Positions 10,418-59,798 of a stretch of 64,000 nucleotides of DNA are shown here, one piece after another. This stretch comes from Escherichia phage vB_EcoM_ULIM9. The stretch is from sequence record OQ850288; one strand, given 5' to 3'. The stretch's first letter is position 1, and every line of letters starts with the position of its first letter. Under the pieces are notes generated by a model. It made no database searches. It was not told where the DNA came from and saw only the letters and a program-made list of their open reading frames with translations. The position numbers were made by a program, and so were the translations under genes.

Positions 10418-10674
10418 GTAAGCCTCTTTTAAGTAACTATTAAGTTTTAATCTTTTATCTTAACGTATTCTATACGTTATACTTTAAAGCTTTTTAAAAG
10501 CTATTAAATAATCTTTTAAGAGTTTTAAAGTATCTGTATAGTTAAACTGTTAAGTAACCTTTTAAGTAAAAACCCACTTCGCAAAGATTAACACCTTGTC
10601 AAGTACATTGTCAACTTGCTTTTTATAATTTTTTGCAGTAATGTATGAGGTTAATGATTTTAGAGGGAGTAAAA

Positions 10675-13374
10675 ATGGAAAACGTAGATTTTAAGAACTT
10701 ACATTTAGTTGGTGATACAGAAACTGATGGTTTACTCCTTGAGTTCACTAAAGTTCACGTAATGGCTTTTGCAGACTATAAATCTGACGATGAAGAGCCA
10801 CCTGTATGGGTCTTCACAGATGAGCCTATCCTCGGTCACAAGTACACTAAGTACATTAAGGGTGGTTTACGTGAAGGTGTTGAGTTTGCGTTAAAGGCAA
10901 AACGACTTTGTATCCATAATGGTCTCGGTTATGACTGGTGGGTTTTCAATCACATTGCACCGGATTTATGGAACTTTGATAATCCAAAATGTAAGCCGTG
11001 GAGTAATTTCTTTCAGGACTCTCTTATCCAGTCTCGTGTTCAGTGGATGGATAGACCAACTCCAAAGGGTTATAAAGGTGCTCATGGTTTGGCTGCATGG
11101 GGTGCTCGTGTTGGTGTTCGTAAGCCAGAGATTGAGCATTGGGGTGTGTGGAATGCAGAAATCTTCACTCGTGTTGTAGAAGATATTCGTATTAACGCCA
11201 AAACTAAACGGGCACTTGATAATGAGTATCTCAAGCTTAAGAAGTGTGGCATAGACACTTATGAAACCTACATGCGAGCTAAAGAAACATCTTTCTGGAT
11301 GAGTCAACAAGCTATCAATGGCTGGAAAGCTGATAAAGAGCTTATGGAGTTCCATGTAAAGGAACTTGACAAGTTGACTAATGAGCTTGCTTCAGAGGTT
11401 GAACCACATCTACCACCAACTATTAAGACCAAAGGTAAAGTCACTGGAGAAGAGTTTGCAAAAGCTTGGAATGAGTATGTTGAAACATTTGGTCATGCAG
11501 ATGGACTGAAAAGAATTACCAAGTACCCTAAGACAAAGTATCGTCAGCAGGTACGTAATGGTGAGATGCAGACATATGAAATCAAGCCATTTGGTAAGCC
11601 AACTACAAAGATTTTTAACATTGAAAAGAGAAATTGCTATACACCAACCAACTCTGTAACTGGTGAAGAGTACAAGGAAGGCTTTGTAGCAATGAAGGAT
11701 GCTCGTGCAATTTGCAATGAGTTGAATGCAAAGATTGGTAAGAAATGCAAAGACTGGAAGCCAGTAAAAACAGTCAAAACTGTGAAGTACTATAACAGCC
11801 ACGTTGTTAACCACTTTGAGCTTGAGTCAAGTCGCTACACAGGTTTGATTGATGCACCATATACACCAATTGAGTTTGAAGTTTCTCGTATGACTCAGGT
11901 AGCAGTTGTTAAAGACTACTTGAAATCAGTTGGTTGGATTCCAGATGACTGGAACTACAAGAAAGACTCAGACGGTCGCCCTATCAAAGTTTGTCGTTTC
12001 AAAGACAATAAAAAGATGATTACAAAACATCCTAAGTGGCAGGAAATGGTTGAGCGGTGCGGTTTGAGCTATGTTGAGCATGAAGGTGTACAGTACATTG
12101 AGCATAACTGGTCTGTTAAGAAGTACACAGACTTACTTGAACCTTGTCTGATTAGGACTTCACCAAAACTTACTGAATCATCTTATGATACGATTGAAGG
12201 TGAGCTTGGACAGAAGATTGCTAAGTACTATACTTTGATGCACCGACGCAGAACTATTGAGAACTCAAAGGATGATGAAAAAGGTTGGTTGAACCAGATT
12301 CGTCCTGATGGTCGCCTTAGTGCTGGTGCAATGGTGTTTGGTACTTCAACTGGACGTATGACACAATATGGTATTGTAAACGTACCGTCTGGTGCTGCTG
12401 TCTATGGAGCACCTATGAGGGCAGTGTGGATTTGTGAAGAGGGGACTAACATTGTTTCTGTTGACCAGAACTCAGCCCAGCTAGTTCTTCTTTGTAACTT
12501 TATGGGTGATGAAGACTTCACTAAAGCGGTAACTGAGGGTAAAGAGTCAGTAGAATTTACCAAGCAAGAAGATGGGAGATATTATTGCAAACATCTTGAT
12601 AAGTACCTTAATCCAGAAACTGATAAGTATCTTCGTTATGATGCTGAGAATGACCTCTATGAAGTCTACACAGGTACTGATGCACATACACTGAATAGTA
12701 TTTACTTTGGTCTGAACAAGGAAGAAGACATTGTTCGTTGTAGGGAGACACAGGATGAGGAACTTCTCCACGAGATTACAAAAGGTCGTAAGAAGAGCAA
12801 AAATGGCATCTACGCCCTGTTATTTGGAGCCGGAGACGAGAAGTTTGCAAAAACTATCAAGGCATCATCTACGGAAGAAGGTGCATTGACTAAACAAACT
12901 TACTATATGCGTCTGCCAAAGATTAAGAAGTTGCTTGATAGCTTAGAAGCCGATTTTAAGGCGTCTAAAAAGGCTCTGGAAGAGGTTTTTGGGAAGAATT
13001 CTTCAATTGCTAAAGGTGGTTATATCAGGGTCGCTGGAGCATGGATATGGTGCAAATCTCCACATAAACTACTGAACTACCTCCTGATGAGTTCGGAAGC
13101 ACAGATTCAGAATGAGGCCATCAACCTAGCAGCAAGAAAAGCCTGTGAAGATGGCCTGACAAAACTGAATGCTCGAAAACCAGCTATCGGAGCAAGGTTA
13201 CTTCTGGCATATCACGATGAAAATAGTTGGGAATGCCCAGAGGGTATGACACATGATATGAAAGCAATTGCTGACTGGATGTATGGACAAGCTTCAAAAA
13301 ACTTAGGTTTGAGGAAAGAAACACTTGTAACTGGTACAGCAAAGGTTGGTAAGAGCTGGTTGGAGGTACATTGA
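10675..13374 (+). CDS. DNA polymerase, family A (Pol I-like) with 3'-5' exonuclease domain
   Basis: ORF track frame 10645-13374; start moved to ATG 10675 (MENVDFKNL), which follows an AGGGAG Shine-Dalgarno; DTETDG exonuclease motif near N-terminus; about 900 aa. Confidence 0.85.
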   Translation: MENVDFKNLHLVGDTETDGLLLEFTKVHVMAFADYKSDDEEPPVWVFTDEPILGHKYTKYIKGGLREGVEFALKAKRLCIHNGLGYDWWVFNHIAPDLWNFDNPKCKPWSNFFQDSLIQSRVQWMDRPTPKGYKGAHGLAAWGARVGVRKPEIEHWGVWNAEIFTRVVEDIRINAKTKRALDNEYLKLKKCGIDTYETYMRAKETSFWMSQQAINGWKADKELMEFHVKELDKLTNELASEVEPHLPPTIKTKGKVTGEEFAKAWNEYVETFGHADGLKRITKYPKTKYRQQVRNGEMQTYEIKPFGKPTTKIFNIEKRNCYTPTNSVTGEEYKEGFVAMKDARAICNELNAKIGKKCKDWKPVKTVKTVKYYNSHVVNHFELESSRYTGLIDAPYTPIEFEVSRMTQVAVVKDYLKSVGWIPDDWNYKKDSDGRPIKVCRFKDNKKMITKHPKWQEMVERCGLSYVEHEGVQYIEHNWSVKKYTDLLEPCLIRTSPKLTESSYDTIEGELGQKIAKYYTLMHRRRTIENSKDDEKGWLNQIRPDGRLSAGAMVFGTSTGRMTQYGIVNVPSGAAVYGAPMRAVWICEEGTNIVSVDQNSAQLVLLCNFMGDEDFTKAVTEGKESVEFTKQEDGRYYCKHLDKYLNPETDKYLRYDAENDLYEVYTGTDAHTLNSIYFGLNKEEDIVRCRETQDEELLHEITKGRKKSKNGIYALLFGAGDEKFAKTIKASSTEEGALTKQTYYMRLPKIKKLLDSLEADFKASKKALEEVFGKNSSIAKGGYIRVAGAWIWCKSPHKLLNYLLMSSEAQIQNEAINLAARKACEDGLTKLNARKPAIGARLLLAYHDENSWECPEGMTHDMKAIADWMYGQASKNLGLRKETLVTGTAKVGKSWLEVH

Positions 13375-14603: not shown

Positions 14604-14791
14604 ACAAAGAAGACAAGCATAAAAATGCTGTACGAACTCCTGATGGGAAGATTCAATCATTCACCCTGACAGTTGGTGGAAAGCCATTCCGTTGCCACTG
14701 CGGAGCAAACTGCTTTCATAAACCAGATAAAAATGACTTAGAGCTTTACGCATGTAATGCTTGCAATACTTGGTATCATTCAGAGGAATAA
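14600..14791 (+). CDS. small zinc-ribbon protein (63 aa)
   Basis: CHCGANC...CNACNTW four-Cys arrangement. Confidence 0.4.
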   Translation: MNKEDKHKNAVRTPDGKIQSFTLTVGGKPFRCHCGANCFHKPDKNDLELYACNACNTWYHSEE

Positions 14792-14792
14792 A

Positions 14793-15896
14793 ATGACAAC
14801 ACTGTACAAACAAAATAAAGATGGTTCCTTCAACGTCTGGTCATGTGTTGCTGTAGGTGATAAAGTTATTACAACCTATGGTAAAGAAAATGGCAAGATG
14901 ATGTTTGAAGAGTATACAGCAGAACCGAAAAACATCGGTAAAAAGAATGAGCGTAACGCTGAACAGCAAGCTCTCTTTGAAGTTGCTGCTAAGTATAAAA
15001 AGCAAGTTGACCGCAAAGGTTATGCTTACACAAAAGAATCTGCACAGAATACTGAGAAGGTAGGTGTACAGCTTGCTCATGATGCTGCAAAGGTTAGTCA
15101 TGCAAAGTATCTGAAGTTCCCTGCTGATACTCAACCAAAACTTGATGGTGTTCGTTGTAGAATTTCAAGACACTTAAGTATTGGCAGTGTATTTACAGCA
15201 TATTCTCGTGAGAACACTATTTATAAAATTCCTACTGAGCTAATACCTGACATTATGGCAATGTTAAGGCTCCATAAAGACGTTGATGAATTTGATGGTG
15301 AAATCTATGCTCATGGGTTGGACTTAGAAGATATTGTCTCCATGATTAAAAATGAAGACAATCCTGACCGACACCTACTCAAGTTTTACTGGTATGATAT
15401 CTGTGACAGTACTAAGACGTGGCCTGAGCGTAGAGATATTATTGAGACTTCACCATTGAATGACTTTAGAGACGGCTGTAAAGTTGTTCCTGTTAAGTCT
15501 CGTCGTGTAAATTCTTGGGAAGAGTTTGATGAAGCTCATGATAAGTGGGTTGAAGCTAAGTTTGAAGGTGCAATGTACCGTTCAATCTCTGAAGACTCCT
15601 TCTATGAGTGTTGTCACCGTTCATACTTCTTGATTAAACACAAGAAGATGCACACTGAAGAGTTTAAAGTGACTGGTGTCAAGACCGATAAACGTGGTCA
15701 TGGCAAGTTCGTTGTAGAGACGCTTCCTAACGTCTTTGTAGATGTTTCATGGAAAACTACCCATGAGAAGAAGCAGTATCTTGCTGAGCATCCTGAAGAG
15801 TTTATCGGGAAACCTTTAACGGTACAGTTTCAGAAGATGACTCGTAAGGGGTCTTTACAGTTCCCTGTTGGTCTCGTTATTCGAGACTACGAATAA
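14793..15896 (+). CDS. ATP-dependent DNA ligase
   Basis: Start moved from 14757 to ATG 14793 (MTTLYKQ) preceded by GAGG; adenylation motif KLDGVRC, plus FDGEIY, EGAMYR and LIKHKK motifs in ligase order. Confidence 0.8.
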   Translation: MTTLYKQNKDGSFNVWSCVAVGDKVITTYGKENGKMMFEEYTAEPKNIGKKNERNAEQQALFEVAAKYKKQVDRKGYAYTKESAQNTEKVGVQLAHDAAKVSHAKYLKFPADTQPKLDGVRCRISRHLSIGSVFTAYSRENTIYKIPTELIPDIMAMLRLHKDVDEFDGEIYAHGLDLEDIVSMIKNEDNPDRHLLKFYWYDICDSTKTWPERRDIIETSPLNDFRDGCKVVPVKSRRVNSWEEFDEAHDKWVEAKFEGAMYRSISEDSFYECCHRSYFLIKHKKMHTEEFKVTGVKTDKRGHGKFVVETLPNVFVDVSWKTTHEKKQYLAEHPEEFIGKPLTVQFQKMTRKGSLQFPVGLVIRDYE

Positions 15897-15903
15897 AAAG
15901 TTG

Positions 15904-15931
15904 TTGACATAGAAAATTTGGTGAGTATACT
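15904..15931 (+). promoter_or_regulatory. sigma70-like promoter (TTGACA-16 nt-TATACT)
   Basis: TTGACA at 15904-15909, 16-nt spacer, TATACT at 15926-15931, directly after the ligase stop. Confidence 0.45.
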
Positions 15932-16111
15932 GAGCAGCATAAACCAACGGGTACTCACCAGCATCACTTAAGAGTCTTTTAAAAGGGTTTTTAAGTGATG
16001 TTTGGTTCGGTATGGTCTAGTAGGCTCTGGTTTGGCAGGGTTTGGTGTGGTTTGGTATGGAAGGATGGCAGTAGCCTTATAAAAAATCTGCCAAATAAGC
16101 TATAAAATCTG

Positions 16112-16140
16112 TTGACAAGTCAGGTGTTATAGCTTATTTT
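16112..16140 (+). promoter_or_regulatory. sigma70-like promoter (TTGACA-17 nt-TATTTT)
   Basis: TTGACA 16112-16117, 17-nt spacer, TATTTT 16135-16140, about 45 nt upstream of ATG 16185. Confidence 0.4.
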
Positions 16141-16184
16141 TATACCCAATGTAATACAAAATTTAATATAACTTTGAGGTCATT

Positions 16185-16568
16185 ATGAAAAAGGTTTTAT
16201 TAGCTGCTGCAATGGTTATGGCAATGAACTTACCAGTCAATGCAACAGAACTTCCAAATGTGGACTTATCAGGTGTTCCAGAAGATACTTGCCAGATTGT
16301 AAAAGGTGTTGCGCTATCTAAAGGTGAGTTACTTAAACCAATCTCTGAAGAGTCTTTAACAGAGATGACTGATAAGGTGACTGACTACCAGTATCGTGTT
16401 CTTGCAGAGTATTTCCTGCAATCTGCAAATATTAAAGAGAAACACCATGATGATATTGATGTACAGGTTATGCTCAATCATCGTATCCAGTTTAAAGAAG
16501 ATTTGATGCAAAAAGCTATGTATGGTGTTGAGTATTTCTTAGAAAACAGAAGCTGCACAGGTATTTGA
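16185..16568 (+). CDS. secreted/periplasmic protein with N-terminal signal peptide
   Basis: 127 aa; MKKVLLAAAMVMAMNLPVNA followed by polar mature region. Confidence 0.5.
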   Translation: MKKVLLAAAMVMAMNLPVNATELPNVDLSGVPEDTCQIVKGVALSKGELLKPISEESLTEMTDKVTDYQYRVLAEYFLQSANIKEKHHDDIDVQVMLNHRIQFKEDLMQKAMYGVEYFLENRSCTGI

Positions 16569-16569
16569 T

Positions 16570-16782
16570 ATGGCTCTTAAAAAGTTACATCCCAGAAGCG
16601 GTTATGGTAAGATAATTGACGATACAGACGGCTTTACAGTCTTTACAGTTATCTGCCAAGATGATTCACAGATTGAAAAGGCTCTTGACGATTATCTTAA
16701 CGATGAACGTGAAAAGGTTCGGGCTACAAACATAGATTCATTGATTGACACTTCACGCAAACGGAAGAAGAAAGATGAATGA
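16570..16782 (+). CDS. hypothetical protein (70 aa)
   Basis: ORF track. Confidence 0.4.
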   Translation: MALKKLHPRSGYGKIIDDTDGFTVFTVICQDDSQIEKALDDYLNDEREKVRATNIDSLIDTSRKRKKKDE

Positions 16783-17074
16783 GGTTTTTGACCCTTATGC
16801 CCCACAAGATGATTGGGAGGCTGATAGAGAGGCTGAAATGGAGAGTTATATTTGTCCAATGGATGTAGACGAAATGAGAGACTTCGTTTCACATCGTTTT
16901 AAGAGAGAGATTAAATCCAGAGGTCTTTCTCAAGAACAAGTTGCTAAAATTTGTGGTATCTCTCAGGCTCGTGTATCCAACATAATCCACCTCACTGGGA
17001 ATGTTTCCCTTGAGTATATGTTGGAAGTATGTGAAAAATTTGGTGTTAGTTTTAATTTAAGGTTGGCAGATTAA
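16775..17074 (+). CDS. putative helix-turn-helix DNA-binding regulator
   Basis: ORF track frame 16745-17074; start moved to internal ATG 16775 (MNEVFDPY); LSQEQVAKICGISQARVSNI resembles an XRE/Cro-type HTH. Confidence 0.4.
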   Translation: MNEVFDPYAPQDDWEADREAEMESYICPMDVDEMRDFVSHRFKREIKSRGLSQEQVAKICGISQARVSNIIHLTGNVSLEYMLEVCEKFGVSFNLRLAD

Positions 17075-23920: not shown

Positions 23921-31915
<7,995 letters not shown>

Positions 31916-36368: not shown

Positions 36369-37475
36369 TTAGCCACCTTGAGCGTCAGCGCGAACATCTA
36401 CCAGCAACTGAGGACGAGTACAGTATGGCAGCATGTAAGAGTGAGCTTCGAAGTCAATACCTTCGTCACGGTCTTTTTCGTATTCAAATACGTACAGTTC
36501 CTGACCAAGTGTATTTGCGTAACCCATCTTAGGACATGGGCCATATGCCACTTCGAAGATGTTGTTAGCTTCACCCAGCATAGATACGTTAGGGAAGGCA
36601 TGACCAACACCAACAGTTGCTGCTACACTGTCAATGCTCACCAGAGTGTGAACATTACCACGCTTGTCTTTGAACTTACCGTTGTACTGGACAAACTTAA
36701 CACCACCGTAGTAGAAGGTGTTCATATGAGCCTGAACGCCGTCAGTACCACCAGTTCTCAGAGAACCAGTAATCTGTTGCCAAGCCAGCGGAGTCTGCTG
36801 TGCAAGATAAGCATCACGAATCTTCGGATGCTTGGTAAGTTTACTGAAGAAAGTTCTGTCAACAACTACGTGAATCTCTTCACCGTTGATTACAGTACCA
36901 GTCTTAGCTTCGTCTTCCATGTGCATACGTAGTTCTTCGATGTGAGCATCAATATCAGAGTTCGGATTGTCAAGGTCGAAGTAAACAGTCTTCTTCTCAA
37001 CGTCGAACTGCTTGTACAGGTCAGCGTACAGAGTACCACGAGCATCAACAACTTTACCCTTCAGAGCTTGCATAAACAGGAACTCACGAGTAATATCGAA
37101 CTTGGTACGAATCTTCATCAGCTTCTTAGCACGTACTACAGCTTCAGTAGTCAGTTCATTTGCAGTGCCTGGCTGACGTACACCCTGAATCTCATCAGGA
37201 GTAATGCTTTCAACTTCTTTGAAGTACATCATTGGGAAGCTGATTTGACGAACACGCTCAGGTGCGCTAGTCTCTGCTTTACGGCTATCACGGTCTACCG
37301 CATCAAGCAAGCTAACATCCCAATCTGTCAAGTCCATAAGGAAAGTAGTTTGGGTGATTGGTGCTGAACGGAACAGACCTAAGTTGGAAATATACCCATA
37401 AGTATTTGGGATAGACTGGACTTCACCAGTCAGGTCAGCAAGGAAAAATCTGCTTTTTTCAGAATTAGTCAACAT
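36369..37475 (-). CDS. major capsid protein
   Basis: 368 aa; follows protease and a small decoration-like gene; strong AGGAGG-type RBS region. Confidence 0.6.
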   Translation of the reverse strand: MLTNSEKSRFFLADLTGEVQSIPNTYGYISNLGLFRSAPITQTTFLMDLTDWDVSLLDAVDRDSRKAETSAPERVRQISFPMMYFKEVESITPDEIQGVRQPGTANELTTEAVVRAKKLMKIRTKFDITREFLFMQALKGKVVDARGTLYADLYKQFDVEKKTVYFDLDNPNSDIDAHIEELRMHMEDEAKTGTVINGEEIHVVVDRTFFSKLTKHPKIRDAYLAQQTPLAWQQITGSLRTGGTDGVQAHMNTFYYGGVKFVQYNGKFKDKRGNVHTLVSIDSVAATVGVGHAFPNVSMLGEANNIFEVAYGPCPKMGYANTLGQELYVFEYEKDRDEGIDFEAHSYMLPYCTRPQLLVDVRADAQGG

Positions 37476-37508
37476 TGTAAAATTCTCCAGAATGTCTTAT
37501 TATTGTTA

Positions 37509-37886
37509 TTACAGGCCAGTTGGTACGAAATCAATACCTTTAGCAGCCAGAGCTTTCTTGACTTCAGCAGCATCAACGCTTGATTCAAGAATTAGCAGGT
37601 CTTTTAGTTCTGCATCACGGTGGATACCAACAACTTTCAACTGACCGTGGTAAGACAGTTGCAGGTCTGCATAAAAGTTAACGATACATACAGAATCAGC
37701 CTGAGATTCTTCTCCTGCTGCAACTTTAGAGCCATCTGCTTTCAGAACTTCACCTACACGGTATTCTGTAGAAGCTTTTGGAGTGTACTCTTTGCGAGAG
37801 TGACCTGTTGGGGTAATCTGTTCCCAAAGAATGATATCATTCAGAGGTTCTCTGTTACCTAACTTAGTAAAACCTTGATATGCCAT
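37509..37886 (-). CDS. putative head decoration protein
   Basis: 125 aa; sits between prohead protease and major capsid genes. Confidence 0.35.
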   Translation of the reverse strand: MAYQGFTKLGNREPLNDIILWEQITPTGHSRKEYTPKASTEYRVGEVLKADGSKVAAGEESQADSVCIVNFYADLQLSYHGQLKVVGIHRDAELKDLLILESSVDAAEVKKALAAKGIDFVPTGL

Positions 37887-37897
37887 TATTGTGTTCC

Positions 37898-39244
37898 TTA
37901 TTTGATAAGAGATTTTAGAGCATTCTGGAGAGCCAGTTTGCGTTGTTCAGCGGTGTCTTCGGAAGCATTCTTAGCTGGTTCTTTTTCTTCTTCAACCAAA
38001 TCAGCTTCGCCGTCATTACCCACTTCTTCCATAGCGTTGGAATGTTCAAGAACAGCACCAGCAGTTTCTTTCAACTTGGTAATTTCTGATTCTTTTTCTT
38101 CCATTGCAGAAGCATGGGACGCGATAGTTTCATTAAGTTTCTGGTTAGCACCTTCCATAGCATTCATAAACAGAACGCTCAGAGGGTTATCAAGACCAGC
38201 ACCTAAAATAGTCGTTGCAGCTTCTTTTGCATCAAATCCAAAAGCTTCAGCAGAAGCAGAAATCTTATTAGTCAAATCTGACAAAGCAGCTTCCTGTTCT
38301 TTAGCTTTCATTTGAGCAACCTGAAGACGCAAAGCTTCTAGTTCTTGCTTTTCTTGTTCAGTCATTTCTTCACCTGAATTGTTAACGTTTAAACTTACAG
38401 GAGCCTCTTCAGAACCTTGTAAGTAATTTAAGAAATCATCTTGAGACATGATTGAGTTAATTAAACCAAGTTCAAGAGCTTCCTGAGCAGAATAAACATT
38501 CGCCTCAGTATTCTTTACAGCTTCTTCAGAGAGATTACGAGATTCAGCTACAAAACCTGTAAAGGTTGTGTAGGTATCATTAATTCTCTTTTGAAGTCTT
38601 TCTTTGCTTTCTTCTGAGAGTGCTTGGAATGGTGAACCCATACCTTTAAACTCACCAGCTTTGATGACGTTAATTGTTACGCCATTCTTTTCAAATGCCT
38701 TAGTTAATTCCTGATGAACCATAATTACACCAATAGAACCAACATCTGCATCTGGTGATGCAATAATTTCTTCAGCAGAAGATGCAAGAGCGTATGCAGC
38801 GGAACAAGCGAACTCATCTACATAAGCAATAATTTTCTTTTGGCCTCTTGAAGCCATAATGTGACGTGCTAATTCAAAGCAACCTGAAGCTTCACCACCA
38901 CCAGAATCAATGTGCAGAACGATAGTCTTAATTGACTCATCTGCTAAAGCTTCGTCAAAGCCTCTACGCAAACCTTCATAAGAGCTTAATCCACCTGTAC
39001 ACATTGCATCAATGAATGTCATACGATGGGTTAAACCACCCATAATAGGGATAATAGCAATGTCATCTTTTACTTTTAAAAGACTTCTTGCTTCACCTTT
39101 GGGTTTATCAAAGTTTACTGCTGCTTGGACATCACCCAGCAATCTGTTATTCACATAAGTTGCTGCTGAGTGAGCTAATGATTCAGTGGCTAGTAAAGGT
39201 TGGTTGAATAATCTATCAGCAAGTCTGAAGATATTCGAACTCAT
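37898..39244 (-). CDS. prohead protease (S49/ClpP-like) fused to acidic coiled-coil scaffold-like C-terminus
   Basis: 448 aa; N-terminal 270 aa carry peptidase-like blocks (HIDSGGGEASG, FACSAAYALASSAEEII); C-terminal 170 aa are E/K/A-rich. Confidence 0.55.
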   Translation of the reverse strand: MSSNIFRLADRLFNQPLLATESLAHSAATYVNNRLLGDVQAAVNFDKPKGEARSLLKVKDDIAIIPIMGGLTHRMTFIDAMCTGGLSSYEGLRRGFDEALADESIKTIVLHIDSGGGEASGCFELARHIMASRGQKKIIAYVDEFACSAAYALASSAEEIIASPDADVGSIGVIMVHQELTKAFEKNGVTINVIKAGEFKGMGSPFQALSEESKERLQKRINDTYTTFTGFVAESRNLSEEAVKNTEANVYSAQEALELGLINSIMSQDDFLNYLQGSEEAPVSLNVNNSGEEMTEQEKQELEALRLQVAQMKAKEQEAALSDLTNKISASAEAFGFDAKEAATTILGAGLDNPLSVLFMNAMEGANQKLNETIASHASAMEEKESEITKLKETAGAVLEHSNAMEEVGNDGEADLVEEEKEPAKNASEDTAEQRKLALQNALKSLIK

Positions 39245-39255
39245 TTTTACTCACC

Positions 39256-39588
39256 CTATTTGTTTAAATCTACAGAGACTGAAGAGATAACATAGATACC
39301 TTCTTCAGCAAAGAATTGAGGTTTGCTAAGAGCACCAGTTGCCACGCATTTATCGTTAGCATCCCACAAGCTATAGTGTGAGACCGTTGCAGAAGCTGGG
39401 ACAGTGATGTTAACTGTGTCTTCTGAGGCAATTAAGCCATTATCCGGTTCAGAAAAATAAATAGCCACTGGCTGAGTAACCTTATTTGCTGTAGGGTCTG
39501 CCGTTGGGTCTACATTGTGTAAAATAATAGTCGTTGGGGTTAGCGTGGCGAGGATTTTATTCTTACCATCAATAGTTAATGTTCCCAT
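39256..39588 (-). CDS. virion-associated hypothetical protein (110 aa)
   Basis: ORF track; in head module. Confidence 0.4.
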   Translation of the reverse strand: MGTLTIDGKNKILATLTPTTIILHNVDPTADPTANKVTQPVAIYFSEPDNGLIASEDTVNITVPASATVSHYSLWDANDKCVATGALSKPQFFAEEGIYVISSVSVDLNK

Positions 39589-40088
39589 TAATTAAACCTT
39601 ACTTTTTGTTTAAGGACTGTTGAATGGTTACCAGATTCATCTACCACATTTACAATCATAGCATATACTTTGCCTTTGACAAGTACTTTGTAATCATTTT
39701 GTGAAAAAATGTATTCAAGTCTGTTTGTTTCTTTATTAACTGTCATTGGAGATTGAAATGCAGTGTCGAGGGTAATGAAAGCGGCTTCAATGCTATTAAC
39801 ATTGATACGTTTATTCTCGCAGTTATATAACTTTACACCCAAAAGGCATGAACTGTCAAATGGAATTTTAACAATTTCACTACAATTTCCTGAAATAAAC
39901 GGTTTTCCACTCATTGGAGCATCAAGTAACCTGCAAATAGTGAAAACGTCAGAGGTTCCACCATCACTTACGTAACCTGAAAGGCTGACCCTTGAGCCAG
40001 CCTCTACAGATAATTTGTCAGTGATGATAAGAACACCTCTATACGAATGCACTCGTGTAGCATTTGAAATAGAGATAACTTCAGCCAT
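39588..40088 (-). CDS. virion-associated hypothetical protein (166 aa)
   Basis: ORF track; in head module. Confidence 0.4.
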   Translation of the reverse strand: MAEVISISNATRVHSYRGVLIITDKLSVEAGSRVSLSGYVSDGGTSDVFTICRLLDAPMSGKPFISGNCSEIVKIPFDSSCLLGVKLYNCENKRINVNSIEAAFITLDTAFQSPMTVNKETNRLEYIFSQNDYKVLVKGKVYAMIVNVVDESGNHSTVLKQKVRFN

Positions 40089-58269: not shown

Positions 58270-59798
58270 TTTTATCGGTTGTCCCAACCTCTGGGTCACC
58301 ATCATATGTGAATAAAATATCTACCCTTCTTAACAACCTTCTTAATCTTACTCTCTATATAGTTATATAGTACTATATAGTATCTTAGTATCTATCTAGT
58401 GGTCTTAATAGCCCCTCTGTATAGACCTTCTAAACACTCTTCTAACAAGCCTTCTTAACAACCTATACAATCACCTTAACCATCTCTCTATACCCTCTTA
58501 GAAGCCCCTATACACCTCTTAATCTCTAGGTAAGCTATGTTACCCTCTATAGGTGTTCACTAGGTATTACTAAGCCTCTATATAGACTGTTTTAACAAAC
58601 TTAACAGGAATATCTTTACAGACCTTATCTCACAAGGTCTAACACGGTACTAACAAGGTATCTTATAAGCCTGTTATTACCTGTATTTTAGAAAGACTGT
58701 ATAGGTAATTATTCAGATTTTTAAAATTTTTATAAAATAGGACTGTCAAGTCATTTTTTAGGGTCTTTGAAGGAACTGAAAAATATCTGTAGAAGATGTA
58801 TATCTGCTTGGTAGCCCTTAACATCCCTGTAACATCCCCTTTGCAAAATTTTAAAATATCCTTAACAATCTCTTAACAACTCTCTCAAGCTCTTAACATC
58901 TCTTCAGAGGTCTTAACAGATTCTTAACAGAACTAACAAAGCTGTAACAAGTTCTTAACAGTCGATACATGGTCTTTATAGTTTCTTAACAGATGACTAA
59001 CAAGAGCTAACAAGTTAATTTTTAAGAGTTATTTTGTTAAGACAATTAACAAGTTCCTAACAAGTGTCTAATCTTTTTAACAAGCTATTAACATGGTCAC
59101 TATCTCTTTTCTTATCGTTCCCTTTCACTCTTAGTGATTCTCTAAATAGCCCTCTTAAAAGCTCTCTATAGCTCTTTGTAAGCTCTTTTAAGTCTCTTCC
59201 TAGTAATTACACCCCAACTATGAAGAAAGCTCTTTATAGGGCTTTACAGGGGCTTTAAAGGCTCTTACAAGGCTTTTACTTGGTCTTAACAGAGATTTAA
59301 CAAGGGGCTAACAAGTTGCTAACAAGTGCCTTAAAAGCATAACTATGTAGGGATTGTTAAGAAATTGTTAAGAAAATGTTAAGGGGGCTAGCATTTACGT
59401 AACTTTTAAGCAACTTTTAATCTACTTCATAGCCCCTATAACATACTTTTAAGACTCTAACAAGCCCTTTTTAGTTATTCACAAGAATACTGACGAGATG
59501 ATAAAGCTTACACCCTTATAAGATTCTTTTAAGCCTCTATAAAGCCCTGTAAAGAGCTTTTTAAGGTTGGTTAATGCAATCCCTTAAGTTAGGTTGATAA
59601 GGCTGTTATAGAGCTTTATAGAGCGTTTTAGGGGTTGCCCTTCCCTTTCGGGTTATGGGCTTATATTTAAGTTGATTTGATAAGGGGCTATAGAGTAATC
59701 TATAGAGTTATTGCTTTTTAAGGTATGAGATAGATTCTATCGAATTAGTGGGATAGATTCTGGAAAGGGAAAGGATTGTATAGGGATTTGATAAGACG
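58270..59798. repeat. ORF-free, strand-skewed region dense in short direct repeats
   Basis: No ORF of 60 aa or more except one overlapping the flanking terminator; plus strand very G-poor; recurring CTTAACA(A/G), CTAACAAG, (C)TATAGAG, TGTTAAG x3 near 59350, GGGATAGATTCT x2 near 59730. Confidence 0.6.

Follow-up and report, generated by a model that had tools for sequence, protein, structure and literature searches.

A probable stand-alone VIPR guide-RNA gene in the spacer downstream of the DNA ligase gene of Escherichia phage vB_EcoM_ULIM9

Background

Between an ATP-dependent DNA ligase gene and a gene encoding a 127-amino-acid (aa) protein, the 64,000-nt stretch of Escherichia phage vB_EcoM_ULIM9 analysed here (sequence record OQ850288; hereafter the window) carries a spacer of 288 nt at positions 15897-16184, and the question raised by this locus is what the spacer is for. 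An earlier note, written by a model from the sequence, had described two promoters, two hairpins and a G/T-rich array resembling iterons, and had offered three explanations: a gene for a small RNA, a regulatory site bound by a protein, or an origin of replication. Matches to the spacer were found in 230 phage records. Nearly all of these belong to Felixounavirus, a group of Felix O1-like myoviruses that infect Salmonella and E. coli, and the best matches were 96.6-98.3% identical over the full length. No real feature annotation was found within the spacer in the public phage records inspected, and the Felix O1 genome paper does not mention it. The analysis presented here indicates that positions 15897-16184 are very probably a vrRNA gene, that is, a gene for a guide RNA of the VIPR system. 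The full reading, a stand-alone VIPR guide-RNA gene of the SUSP1 clade (type II) from which vipr and vap have been lost, is given a probability of about 0.88.

VIPR is a CRISPR-like RNA-guided DNA-silencing system of phages, reported in preprints (bioRxiv 10.64898/2026.04.26.720920, 10.64898/2026.04.26.720927) that date from April and June 2026 and concern a sister phage with the same locus. Its parts are Vipr, a phage-encoded RAMP-fold protein of ~20 kDa, an accessory gene, vap, and vrRNAs of ~100 nt (10.64898/2026.04.26.720920). Each vrRNA consists of 9-16 YNNGG repeats, in which GGY is conserved and the NN dinucleotide is hypervariable, followed by an invariant tail, which is pseudoknotted in the SUSP1 clade; through their NN dinucleotides, vrRNAs base-pair with double-stranded DNA by a 1-nt-skip rule, and transcription is silenced (10.64898/2026.04.26.720920). 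The GGY of each repeat is gripped by one Vipr protomer, and Vipr polymerises on GGY (10.64898/2026.04.26.720927). SUSP1-clade guides have a satellite phage as their main target (10.64898/2026.04.26.720920).

VIPR is a newly reported form of RNA-guided DNA recognition and has been proposed as an ancestor of CRISPR effector complexes. Like CRISPR RNAs, vrRNAs are programmable guides: RAMP-fold proteins bind them, and a conserved structured handle caps the variable portion that does the targeting. Unlike CRISPR, the vrRNA system is phage-borne and lacks both repeat-spacer units and acquisition machinery, and its targeting is non-contiguous, using 2 of every 5 nt and reading DNA with a 1-nt skip.

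The spacer aligns with the vrRNA locus of phage SUSP1

SUSP1 is an Ounavirinae phage whose VIPR locus follows the ligase gene, as in the window. At this ligase-proximal locus, vrRNAs of ~100 nt were detected by small-RNA sequencing and were bound by Vipr (10.64898/2026.04.26.720920). The gene order, ligase / VIPR locus / 127-aa gene / 70-aa gene / helix-turn-helix (HTH) gene, is common to the window, SUSP1 and 27 relatives, so that SUSP1 vrRNA1 and vrRNA4 occupy the same position as the window element, flanked by the DNA ligase gene on one side and the 127-aa signal-peptide gene on the other. The upstream part of the spacer (promoter P1 and hairpins H1 and H2; Table 1) aligned with the region upstream of SUSP1 vrRNA1, and the tail, the terminator hairpin and the promoter-like site P2 were identical to those of SUSP1 vrRNA4. 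The number of YNNGG units in the window, 12, is also that of the vrRNA used for cryo-electron microscopy. Unlike the window, which has one vrRNA, neither protein gene and a different NN guide, SUSP1 has vipr, vap1 and four vrRNAs.

The protein component of the related loci leads to the same identification. In fourteen related loci a two-gene cassette (200 aa and 146 aa) lies between the vrRNA modules. The 200-aa open reading frame (ORF) corresponds to the annotated 195-aa SUSP1 coding sequence with five additional codons at the N-terminus, shares 98% identity with the SUSP1 protein, and has 8 of the 9 RNA-contact residues of the structure preprint at the stated positions (H17, E71, M72, R138, C173, D177, W178 and R179). 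Because of this identity and the contact residues in place, the cassette of the relatives is vipr plus vap, and the window element is therefore read as a vrRNA gene. The small-RNA option of the earlier note was thereby borne out, the promoter, leader, repeats, tail and terminator all being homologous to those of vrRNAs at the same SUSP1 locus.

In the proposed scheme, host RNA polymerase would start at P1 and produce a transcript comprising a leader hairpin, 12 YNNGG repeats, a pseudoknotted tail and a terminator hairpin. By analogy with SUSP1, the mature RNA after processing would be ~95 nt, spanning ~16001-16093. In a complete VIPR system such as that of SUSP1, Vipr bound to GGY exposes the NN dinucleotides for pairing with DNA, with every third base skipped.

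Table 1 Features of the spacer at 15897-16184 and of its neighbours, in window coordinates
Feature	Position	Strand	Details
ATP-dependent DNA ligase gene	14757-15896	+	5' neighbour of the spacer
Promoter P1, sigma70-type	15904-15931	+	TTGACA 15904-15909, 16-nt spacer, TATACT 15926-15931; 11/12 consensus
Inverted repeat H1	15919-15927 / 15952-15960		TGGTGAGTA 15919-15927, 24 nt, TACTCACCA 15952-15960; 9/9 complementary; strand unassigned
Leader hairpin H2	15962-16000	+	CATCACTTAAGAGTCTTTT / AAAGGGTTTTTAAGTGATG; 19 bp; free energy -18.2 kcal/mol, z = -6.6
Guide region	16001-16060	+	12 tandem YNNGG units (GGY + NN), from repeat parse
3' tail, H-type pseudoknot	16061-16092	+	S1 AAGG 16061-16064 / CCTT 16075-16078; S2 GGCAG 16067-16071 / CTGCC 16088-16092
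Hairpin H4 and T run	16093-16144	+	Arms 16093-16111 / 16121-16139; 19 nt, 89% complementary; AT-rich
Promoter-like site P2	16112-16140	+	TTGACA 16112-16117, 17-nt spacer, TATTTT 16135-16140; 10/12 consensus
Ribosome-binding site and start codon	16176-16179, 16185	+	GAGG, ATG of the 127-aa gene
127-aa gene	16185-16568	+	3' neighbour of the spacer; signal peptide encoded
HTH gene	16745-17074		After the 127-aa gene and the 70-aa gene

Architecture of the element

The repeat tract was parsed as the units TTTGG TTCGG TATGG TCTAG TAGGC TCTGG TTTGG CAGGG TTTGG TGTGG TTTGG TATGG, which spell the NN series TT TC AT CT AG CT TT AG TT GT TT AT. With the leader unit TGATG included, 10 of 13 units are perfect. 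In-phase GG reached 8/10 at the tract as compared with a maximum of 4-5 elsewhere on both strands of the window, in which the tract is therefore unique. The G/T-rich array of the earlier note is real, but its extent is 16001-16060 rather than about 16040-16070, and its period is 5 nt rather than 10-11 bp; the three GGTTTGG copies, 10 nt apart, represent every second pentamer unit. The tract is not coding, since a 5-nt period is incompatible with a reading frame, and no ORF of at least 40 aa was found within the spacer. An exact copy of the window guide is present in E. coli phage DE7, the copy in phage L27 has a single extra unit, and those in phages D1-2 and RPN213 show three changes.

The near-consensus sigma70 promoter claimed previously is present (P1). 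Transcription from it is predicted to begin at ~15937-15939. P1 was located in 27 relative loci when up to 3 substitutions were allowed, is fully conserved in four aligned relatives, and precedes SUSP1 vrRNA1 in identical form. Within the surrounding 3 kb, 5 promoter-like sites were counted against 7.7 expected from shuffles, so that their count alone is not above chance. The leader motif GTCTTnnnnnAGGGTnTTTTAA, tried as a general phage promoter, gave only 4 loose matches in the window.

Three hairpins surround or adjoin the tract. H1, noted before as an inverted repeat overlapping the promoter, does overlap the -10 element of P1; it is invariant in the aligned relatives and in SUSP1, and its 9-mer has just one further copy in the window. 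Folded as RNA it has a free energy of -15.3 kcal/mol (z = -3.1), but it probably lies outside the P1 transcript because its left arm falls within the P1 spacer and -10 element, and the palindrome over P1 may be an operator. The 10-bp perfect inverted repeat of the earlier note (CATCACTTAA at 15962-15971, 19 nt, TTAAGTGATG at 15991-16000) was likewise found and forms part of the longer hairpin H2. H2 directly abuts the first repeat, and its final 5 nt, TGATG (15996-16000), are already in the YNNGG register. Leaders of the H2 type were found before several modules, and in Vipr-encoding relatives before both the first and the last vrRNA. In DE7 (L184), which has the window's guide exactly, the inner part of the H2 leader hairpin has been rewritten (CATCACTTAAAAACACTTTTAAAAGGTTCTTAAGTGATG).

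The third hairpin, H4, had been overlooked. It has a free energy of -17.8 kcal/mol (z = -4.8), is invariant in the aligned relatives and in SUSP1 vrRNA4, and together with its T run is a probable intrinsic terminator of the vrRNA transcript. The second TTGACA reported before the next gene is indeed there and supplies the -35 element of P2, which sits in the H4 loop. P2 is conserved in the aligned relatives and in SUSP1 and, as predicted from the sequence, would drive the 127-aa gene.

Searches against general resources returned nothing further for the spacer. An Rfam 15 search of 15000-17000 yielded no family at the gathering threshold, the lowest E-value, 0.12, being at an unrelated site. ARAGORN identified no tRNA or tmRNA near the spacer, with tRNAs only at 43.6-48.3 kb, and no match to the spacer was found by BLAST in 5,426 E. 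coli genomes. A paper on retron Eco2 that mentions Felixounavirus was considered and found irrelevant to the spacer.

The tail forms a covarying pseudoknot

Immediately after the guide region lies an H-type pseudoknot with an A-rich loop, which had also escaped the earlier reading. The tail itself is invariant. Among the relatives, tails fall into four sequence types, all of which fold as the same H-type pseudoknot. Stem 1 occurs as AAGG/CCTT, GTGG/CCAC and GTAG/CTAC, and stem 2 as GGCAG/CTGCC, GGTAG/CTACC, TAATCGA/TCGATTA and AGTCTCA/TGAGACT; types C and D have different yet complementary stems. In an alignment of the two same-length tail types with satellite variants, 98% of cells were paired and compensatory double changes were present in 4 of 9 pairs, whereas slid partner columns paired in 28-48%.

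Related loci are built from one to five vrRNA modules

A total of 27 related loci were collected from IMG/VR and GenBank. In these loci the spacer between the ligase gene and the 127-aa gene ranges from ~285 nt to ~2,000 nt and is made of 1-5 copies of a module, which comprises a leader (the H2 hairpin or the related motif CCTTTTTAAAAGGTCTTTAAGAGGGTCTTTTAATGAGG), 9-20 pentamer units and a tail. Parsing of 28 loci gave 83 modules and 69 distinct repeat tracts. Across the 69 guides Y was a pyrimidine in 99%, and the fourth and fifth positions were G in 80% and 97%, respectively. Entropy was ~1.9 bits at NN versus 0.2-0.9 bits at the GGY positions, and NN was hypervariable even between phages with near-identical flanks. 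The length of the tract was an exact multiple of 5 in 9/9 further GenBank loci, and the extra unit in L27 is a whole-unit insertion. Conservation of the iterons in relatives, which the earlier note had looked to as a check, was thus found for one part of the unit and not the other: GGY is kept throughout the 69 guides, but NN is near random and the number of modules varies from 1 to 5.

The vipr-vap cassette was absent from 13 of the 28 sampled loci, and in GenBank 230 records had the spacer but only 118 a close Vipr. The fraction of perfect units, a measure of GGY fidelity, was 0.71 in Vipr-less loci and 0.77 in Vipr-encoding loci. Vipr-less relatives keep one to three promoter-driven guides with the GGY scaffold intact, and many of these still spell satellite-phage genes.

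Arrays of a similar kind occur beyond this group. At least 120 viral stretches in IMG/VR contain seven or more consecutive GGTNN units. Among the GGTNN matches listed are many long degenerate arrays, up to ~1.2 kb (L125, L047 and L053), in phages unrelated to Felix O1; the arrays are often just upstream of a ribosome-binding site, and some matches are plain pentanucleotide microsatellites. The number of degenerate arrays in unrelated phages points to a general phage element, and these are presumably vrRNA arrays of other VIPR types.

Guides of the relatives match satellite phages

A bioinformatics approach was used to look for targets. Because a satellite baseplate protein 72% identical to that of SUSP1 has been reported (10.64898/2026.04.26.720920), E. 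coli genomes were searched with the baseplate-hub gene of the window (28912-29709, - strand). Matches of up to 93% DNA identity were found in 474 of 5,426 complete E. coli genomes. The matching elements are ~11 kb long, are integrated by tonB or yecD, and encode a tape-measure protein, a baseplate protein and serine recombinases; in the satellites matched by guides below, the baseplate gene is 92% identical to window 28912-29709.

The 69 guides were then scored against seven satellites under the 1-nt-skip rule, a match being defined as at least 85% of NN positions and a score above all 20 unit-order shuffles. Thirty-four of the 69 guides matched E. coli satellites at this threshold and beat 20/20 shuffles, so that the published 1-nt-skip code was independently reproduced on the guides of the relatives. 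Targets had been known for 20/41 guides in this clade (10.64898/2026.04.26.720920). Among the guides found only in Vipr-less loci, 8/19 matched satellites at 85% or more, and the solo guides of two single-module phages, JLBYU28 and radambza, did so at 22/24 (0.92) and 21/24 (0.88). No self-target of the window guide was found within the window, the guides of the relatives gave nothing above control against the window phage or D1-2, and the exact target pattern of SUSP1 vrRNA1 had 0 matches in viral contigs.

Satellites have been reported to encode vrRNAs (10.64898/2026.04.26.720920). Four of the satellites examined here carry a single vrRNA gene, with a sigma70 promoter (TTGACG, 17 nt, TATAAT), 10-14 YNNGG units, a type-B tail and a GC-rich terminator, and tblastn detected neither vipr nor vap in the seven E. 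coli satellite loci. Since these vrRNA genes have no vipr in their own element, their guides must use the Vipr of the helper phage in trans. Like the window element, each satellite gene has a single guide with a sigma70 promoter of its own, ends in a phage-type pseudoknot tail and a terminator, and is unaccompanied by vipr. They differ in that the satellites are integrated and helper-dependent, and in having a different promoter and leader and a type B tail, whereas the window element is carried by a full lytic Felixounavirus with relatives that encode their own Vipr.

Probable loss of the effector genes

No Vipr was found in the window when it was searched by tblastn with the Vipr of the relatives, the best E-value being 0.27, and the 146-aa Vap homolog was found by tblastn neither in the window nor in D1-2. 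Over 60.9 kb, Salmonella phage D1-2 shares 94% identity with the window, and its spacer, likewise of a single module, is 98.3% identical. In the complete D1-2 genome (86.9 kb), tblastn with Vipr and Vap gave nothing at E <= 1, and only one pentamer tract is present.

The arrangement in the window, in which P1 and a vrRNA1-type leader are joined to a guide bearing the tail of the last vrRNA, suggests a route for this loss. As Vipr-encoding relatives have an H2 leader ahead of their first vrRNA and another ahead of their last, these leaders are a likely recombination substrate for loss of the cassette. Recombination between the two would delete vrRNA1, vipr, vap and the internal vrRNAs and leave the arrangement seen in the window.

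Weighing the vrRNA reading against other explanations

Several findings weigh against the reading of the spacer as a stand-alone vrRNA gene. Two defining VIPR components, vipr and vap, are absent from the window, which contains an incomplete system; the effector search covered 64 kb, and ~22 kb of the ULIM9 genome lies outside it. The guide of the window had no convincing target. Against 18 satellite loci its best scores were 0.71-0.75, equal to those of shuffled controls, and its exact 24-base pattern was absent from the viral, genome and metagenome collections. In viral contigs, two masked 20-base patterns were also without a match; one masked pattern had 5 genome and 9 metagenome matches, all in unrelated environmental organisms and all failing at the masked units. 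The collections scanned exclude the Salmonella pangenome, the likeliest place for the target of a mostly Salmonella-phage guide. Within the tract, GG is degenerate in 2 of 12 units (TCTAG and TAGGC) and four NN are TT, which fits some decay. The ends of the window transcript are placed by analogy with SUSP1, and the work on VIPR is at the preprint stage.

Two readings that dispense with Vipr were weighed on the same evidence. The earlier idea of a replication origin, or of another protein-binding site at the DNA level, is hardly credible now, whether the iterons are taken to recruit an initiator or the HTH protein; the same goes for an R-loop of the promoter transcript that would prime replication. 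The locus does lie within a replication and nucleotide-metabolism module, a strong promoter is followed by a G-rich non-template strand and AT-rich DNA, and the H1 palindrome over P1 is operator-like. Iteron origins of plasmids and lambda-like phages similarly combine tandem short direct repeats in a non-coding spacer with adjoining AT-rich DNA in a replication module, but their units are conserved, 17-22 bp long and beside an initiator gene, whereas the window has a 5-nt unit and no initiator gene. Two hypervariable positions in every 5-nt unit are the opposite of an initiator-binding iteron, and the module number of 1-5 varies among close relatives. The same element, with its own promoter and terminator, is found in non-replicating chromosomal satellites, degenerate GGTNN arrays are present in at least 120 unrelated viral contigs, and the GC-skew minimum is near 10 kb, a turning point where transcription diverges, and not at 16 kb. 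Experiments on the homologous SUSP1 locus showed that what it makes is several small RNAs to which Vipr binds, and the origin option was abandoned. The protein-binding option survives in another form: binding is expected at the level of RNA, with GGY gripped by Vipr in a SUSP1-type system, rather than at a DNA site or iteron, and no link was found between the array and the HTH protein.

An RNA that works independently of Vipr, whether as a two-tetrad G-quadruplex, a GU-rich leader modulating termination or translation of the downstream operon or an antisense C-rich Rho-loading site, is very unlikely. A (GGNNN)n tract could fold into G-quadruplexes of two quartets, the antisense strand is rich in C and poor in G, and the P1 transcript folds far better than shuffles (z = -4.95). 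None of these functions would account for the conserved pyrimidine after GG, the strict register kept from the leader through to the tail, the covariation in the pseudoknot or the way sister guides match satellites, and there was no Rfam family match. A TRAP-like or CsrA-like protein sponge, a nut/boxA-boxC antitermination site, a T7-type primase-site array and Chi-like sequences were tried as well and rejected, as each leaves the GGY/NN pattern, the pseudoknot and the satellite matches unexplained.

Relic or guide in trans

With the vrRNA identification retained, the question becomes what the window gene does at present. The window guide could act only with a compatible Vipr supplied in trans, for example from a co-infecting Vipr-encoding relative, and would otherwise be an expressed relic. 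If the spacer is a vrRNA gene, a relic state without current guide function is given somewhat better than even odds; use in trans is possible but less expected.

One account of the relic state, in which the tract decays after a vipr-vap deletion as part of a transcribed spacer while P1, the terminator and P2 are kept for the downstream genes, is evenly balanced. It is favoured by the absence of Vipr from both the window and the near-identical complete genome of D1-2, and by the failure of the window guide to find a target when half of the guides of its relatives have one. The guide differs from that of D1-2 at 3/60 nt (5%, compared with 6% genome-wide), one change breaking a GG, while the rest of the spacer differs by ~1%, and of the five single-module guides that were sampled together with the window from IMG/VR and GenBank, 0 matched satellites. 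Decay is harder to reconcile with the equal GGY fidelity of Vipr-less and Vipr-encoding loci (0.71 vs 0.77), with the 8/19 guides exclusive to Vipr-less loci and the JLBYU28 and radambza solo guides that are still on satellites, and with tract lengths that in every case checked are a multiple of 5, including the whole-unit insertion in L27. The window guide also persists across phages that have diverged by ~6% genome-wide, and about half of the GenBank relatives are Vipr-less yet have vrRNAs (230 spacer vs 118 Vipr records).

The converse proposal, made here tentatively and held to be rather unlikely, is that effector-less Felixounavirus vrRNA genes as a class are maintained rather than decaying and act in trans on the Vipr of a co-infecting relative, which has the identical tail type. 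Orphan CRISPR arrays offer a parallel, as they have no adjacent effector genes and can work in trans. If the proposal is true, orphan guides could silence a shared parasite without the protein cost, or could act as decoys that dilute or redirect a competitor's Vipr, and a 'cheater' or 'anti-VIPR' layer would exist that is invisible to the Vipr-centred discovery pipeline of the preprints. The kind of RNA and its locus are known from SUSP1; the preprint text does not describe a widespread effector-less state in lytic Felixounaviruses with on-target guides.

Either outcome bears on how these genomes are read. An unannotated iteron-like spacer in Felix O1-like records would become a VIPR guide-RNA gene, and guides without an effector persist in roughly half of this group of Salmonella and E. 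coli phages, which are widely used for typing or therapy. Orphan guides acting in trans would add a social layer to phage-satellite-phage conflict, with effectors shared or hijacked. If they are relics, they would allow a deletion route by which phages have recurrently shed VIPR, through recombining leader repeats, to be dated and mapped. Orphan guides are also ready natural guides for the study of Vipr loading rules.

Other observations on the locus and the window

An extra stretch of ~150 nt lies between the ligase stop codon and P1 in UAB_Phi87 (L002 1354-1500), JK55 and TP15 and is absent from the window; in UAB_Phi87 it is annotated as a small hypothetical ORF.

The vrRNA-leader motif GTCTTTnnAGAGGGnnTTnTAAG had 4 loose matches against 0.86 expected, among them 46275-46296 (-), 46883-46904 (-) and 58750-58771 (+). 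The motif thus occurs in the tRNA cluster, where one copy is ~65 nt upstream of tRNA-Leu (46132-46209), and it might be a phage promoter or a processing signal common to small-RNA genes.

The DNA polymerase is encoded by a single 909-aa ORF in the window (10645-13374) as opposed to two coding sequences with a gap in the D1-2 record (36791-39758), and the split annotation suggests an insertion or frameshift in D1-2. The ~1 kb at 58300-59300, which could serve as a terminus, an origin or a packaging region, is AT-rich, has no + strand ORF of at least 40 aa and has several words of the type CTTAACA / CCTTAACA at 58815-58900.

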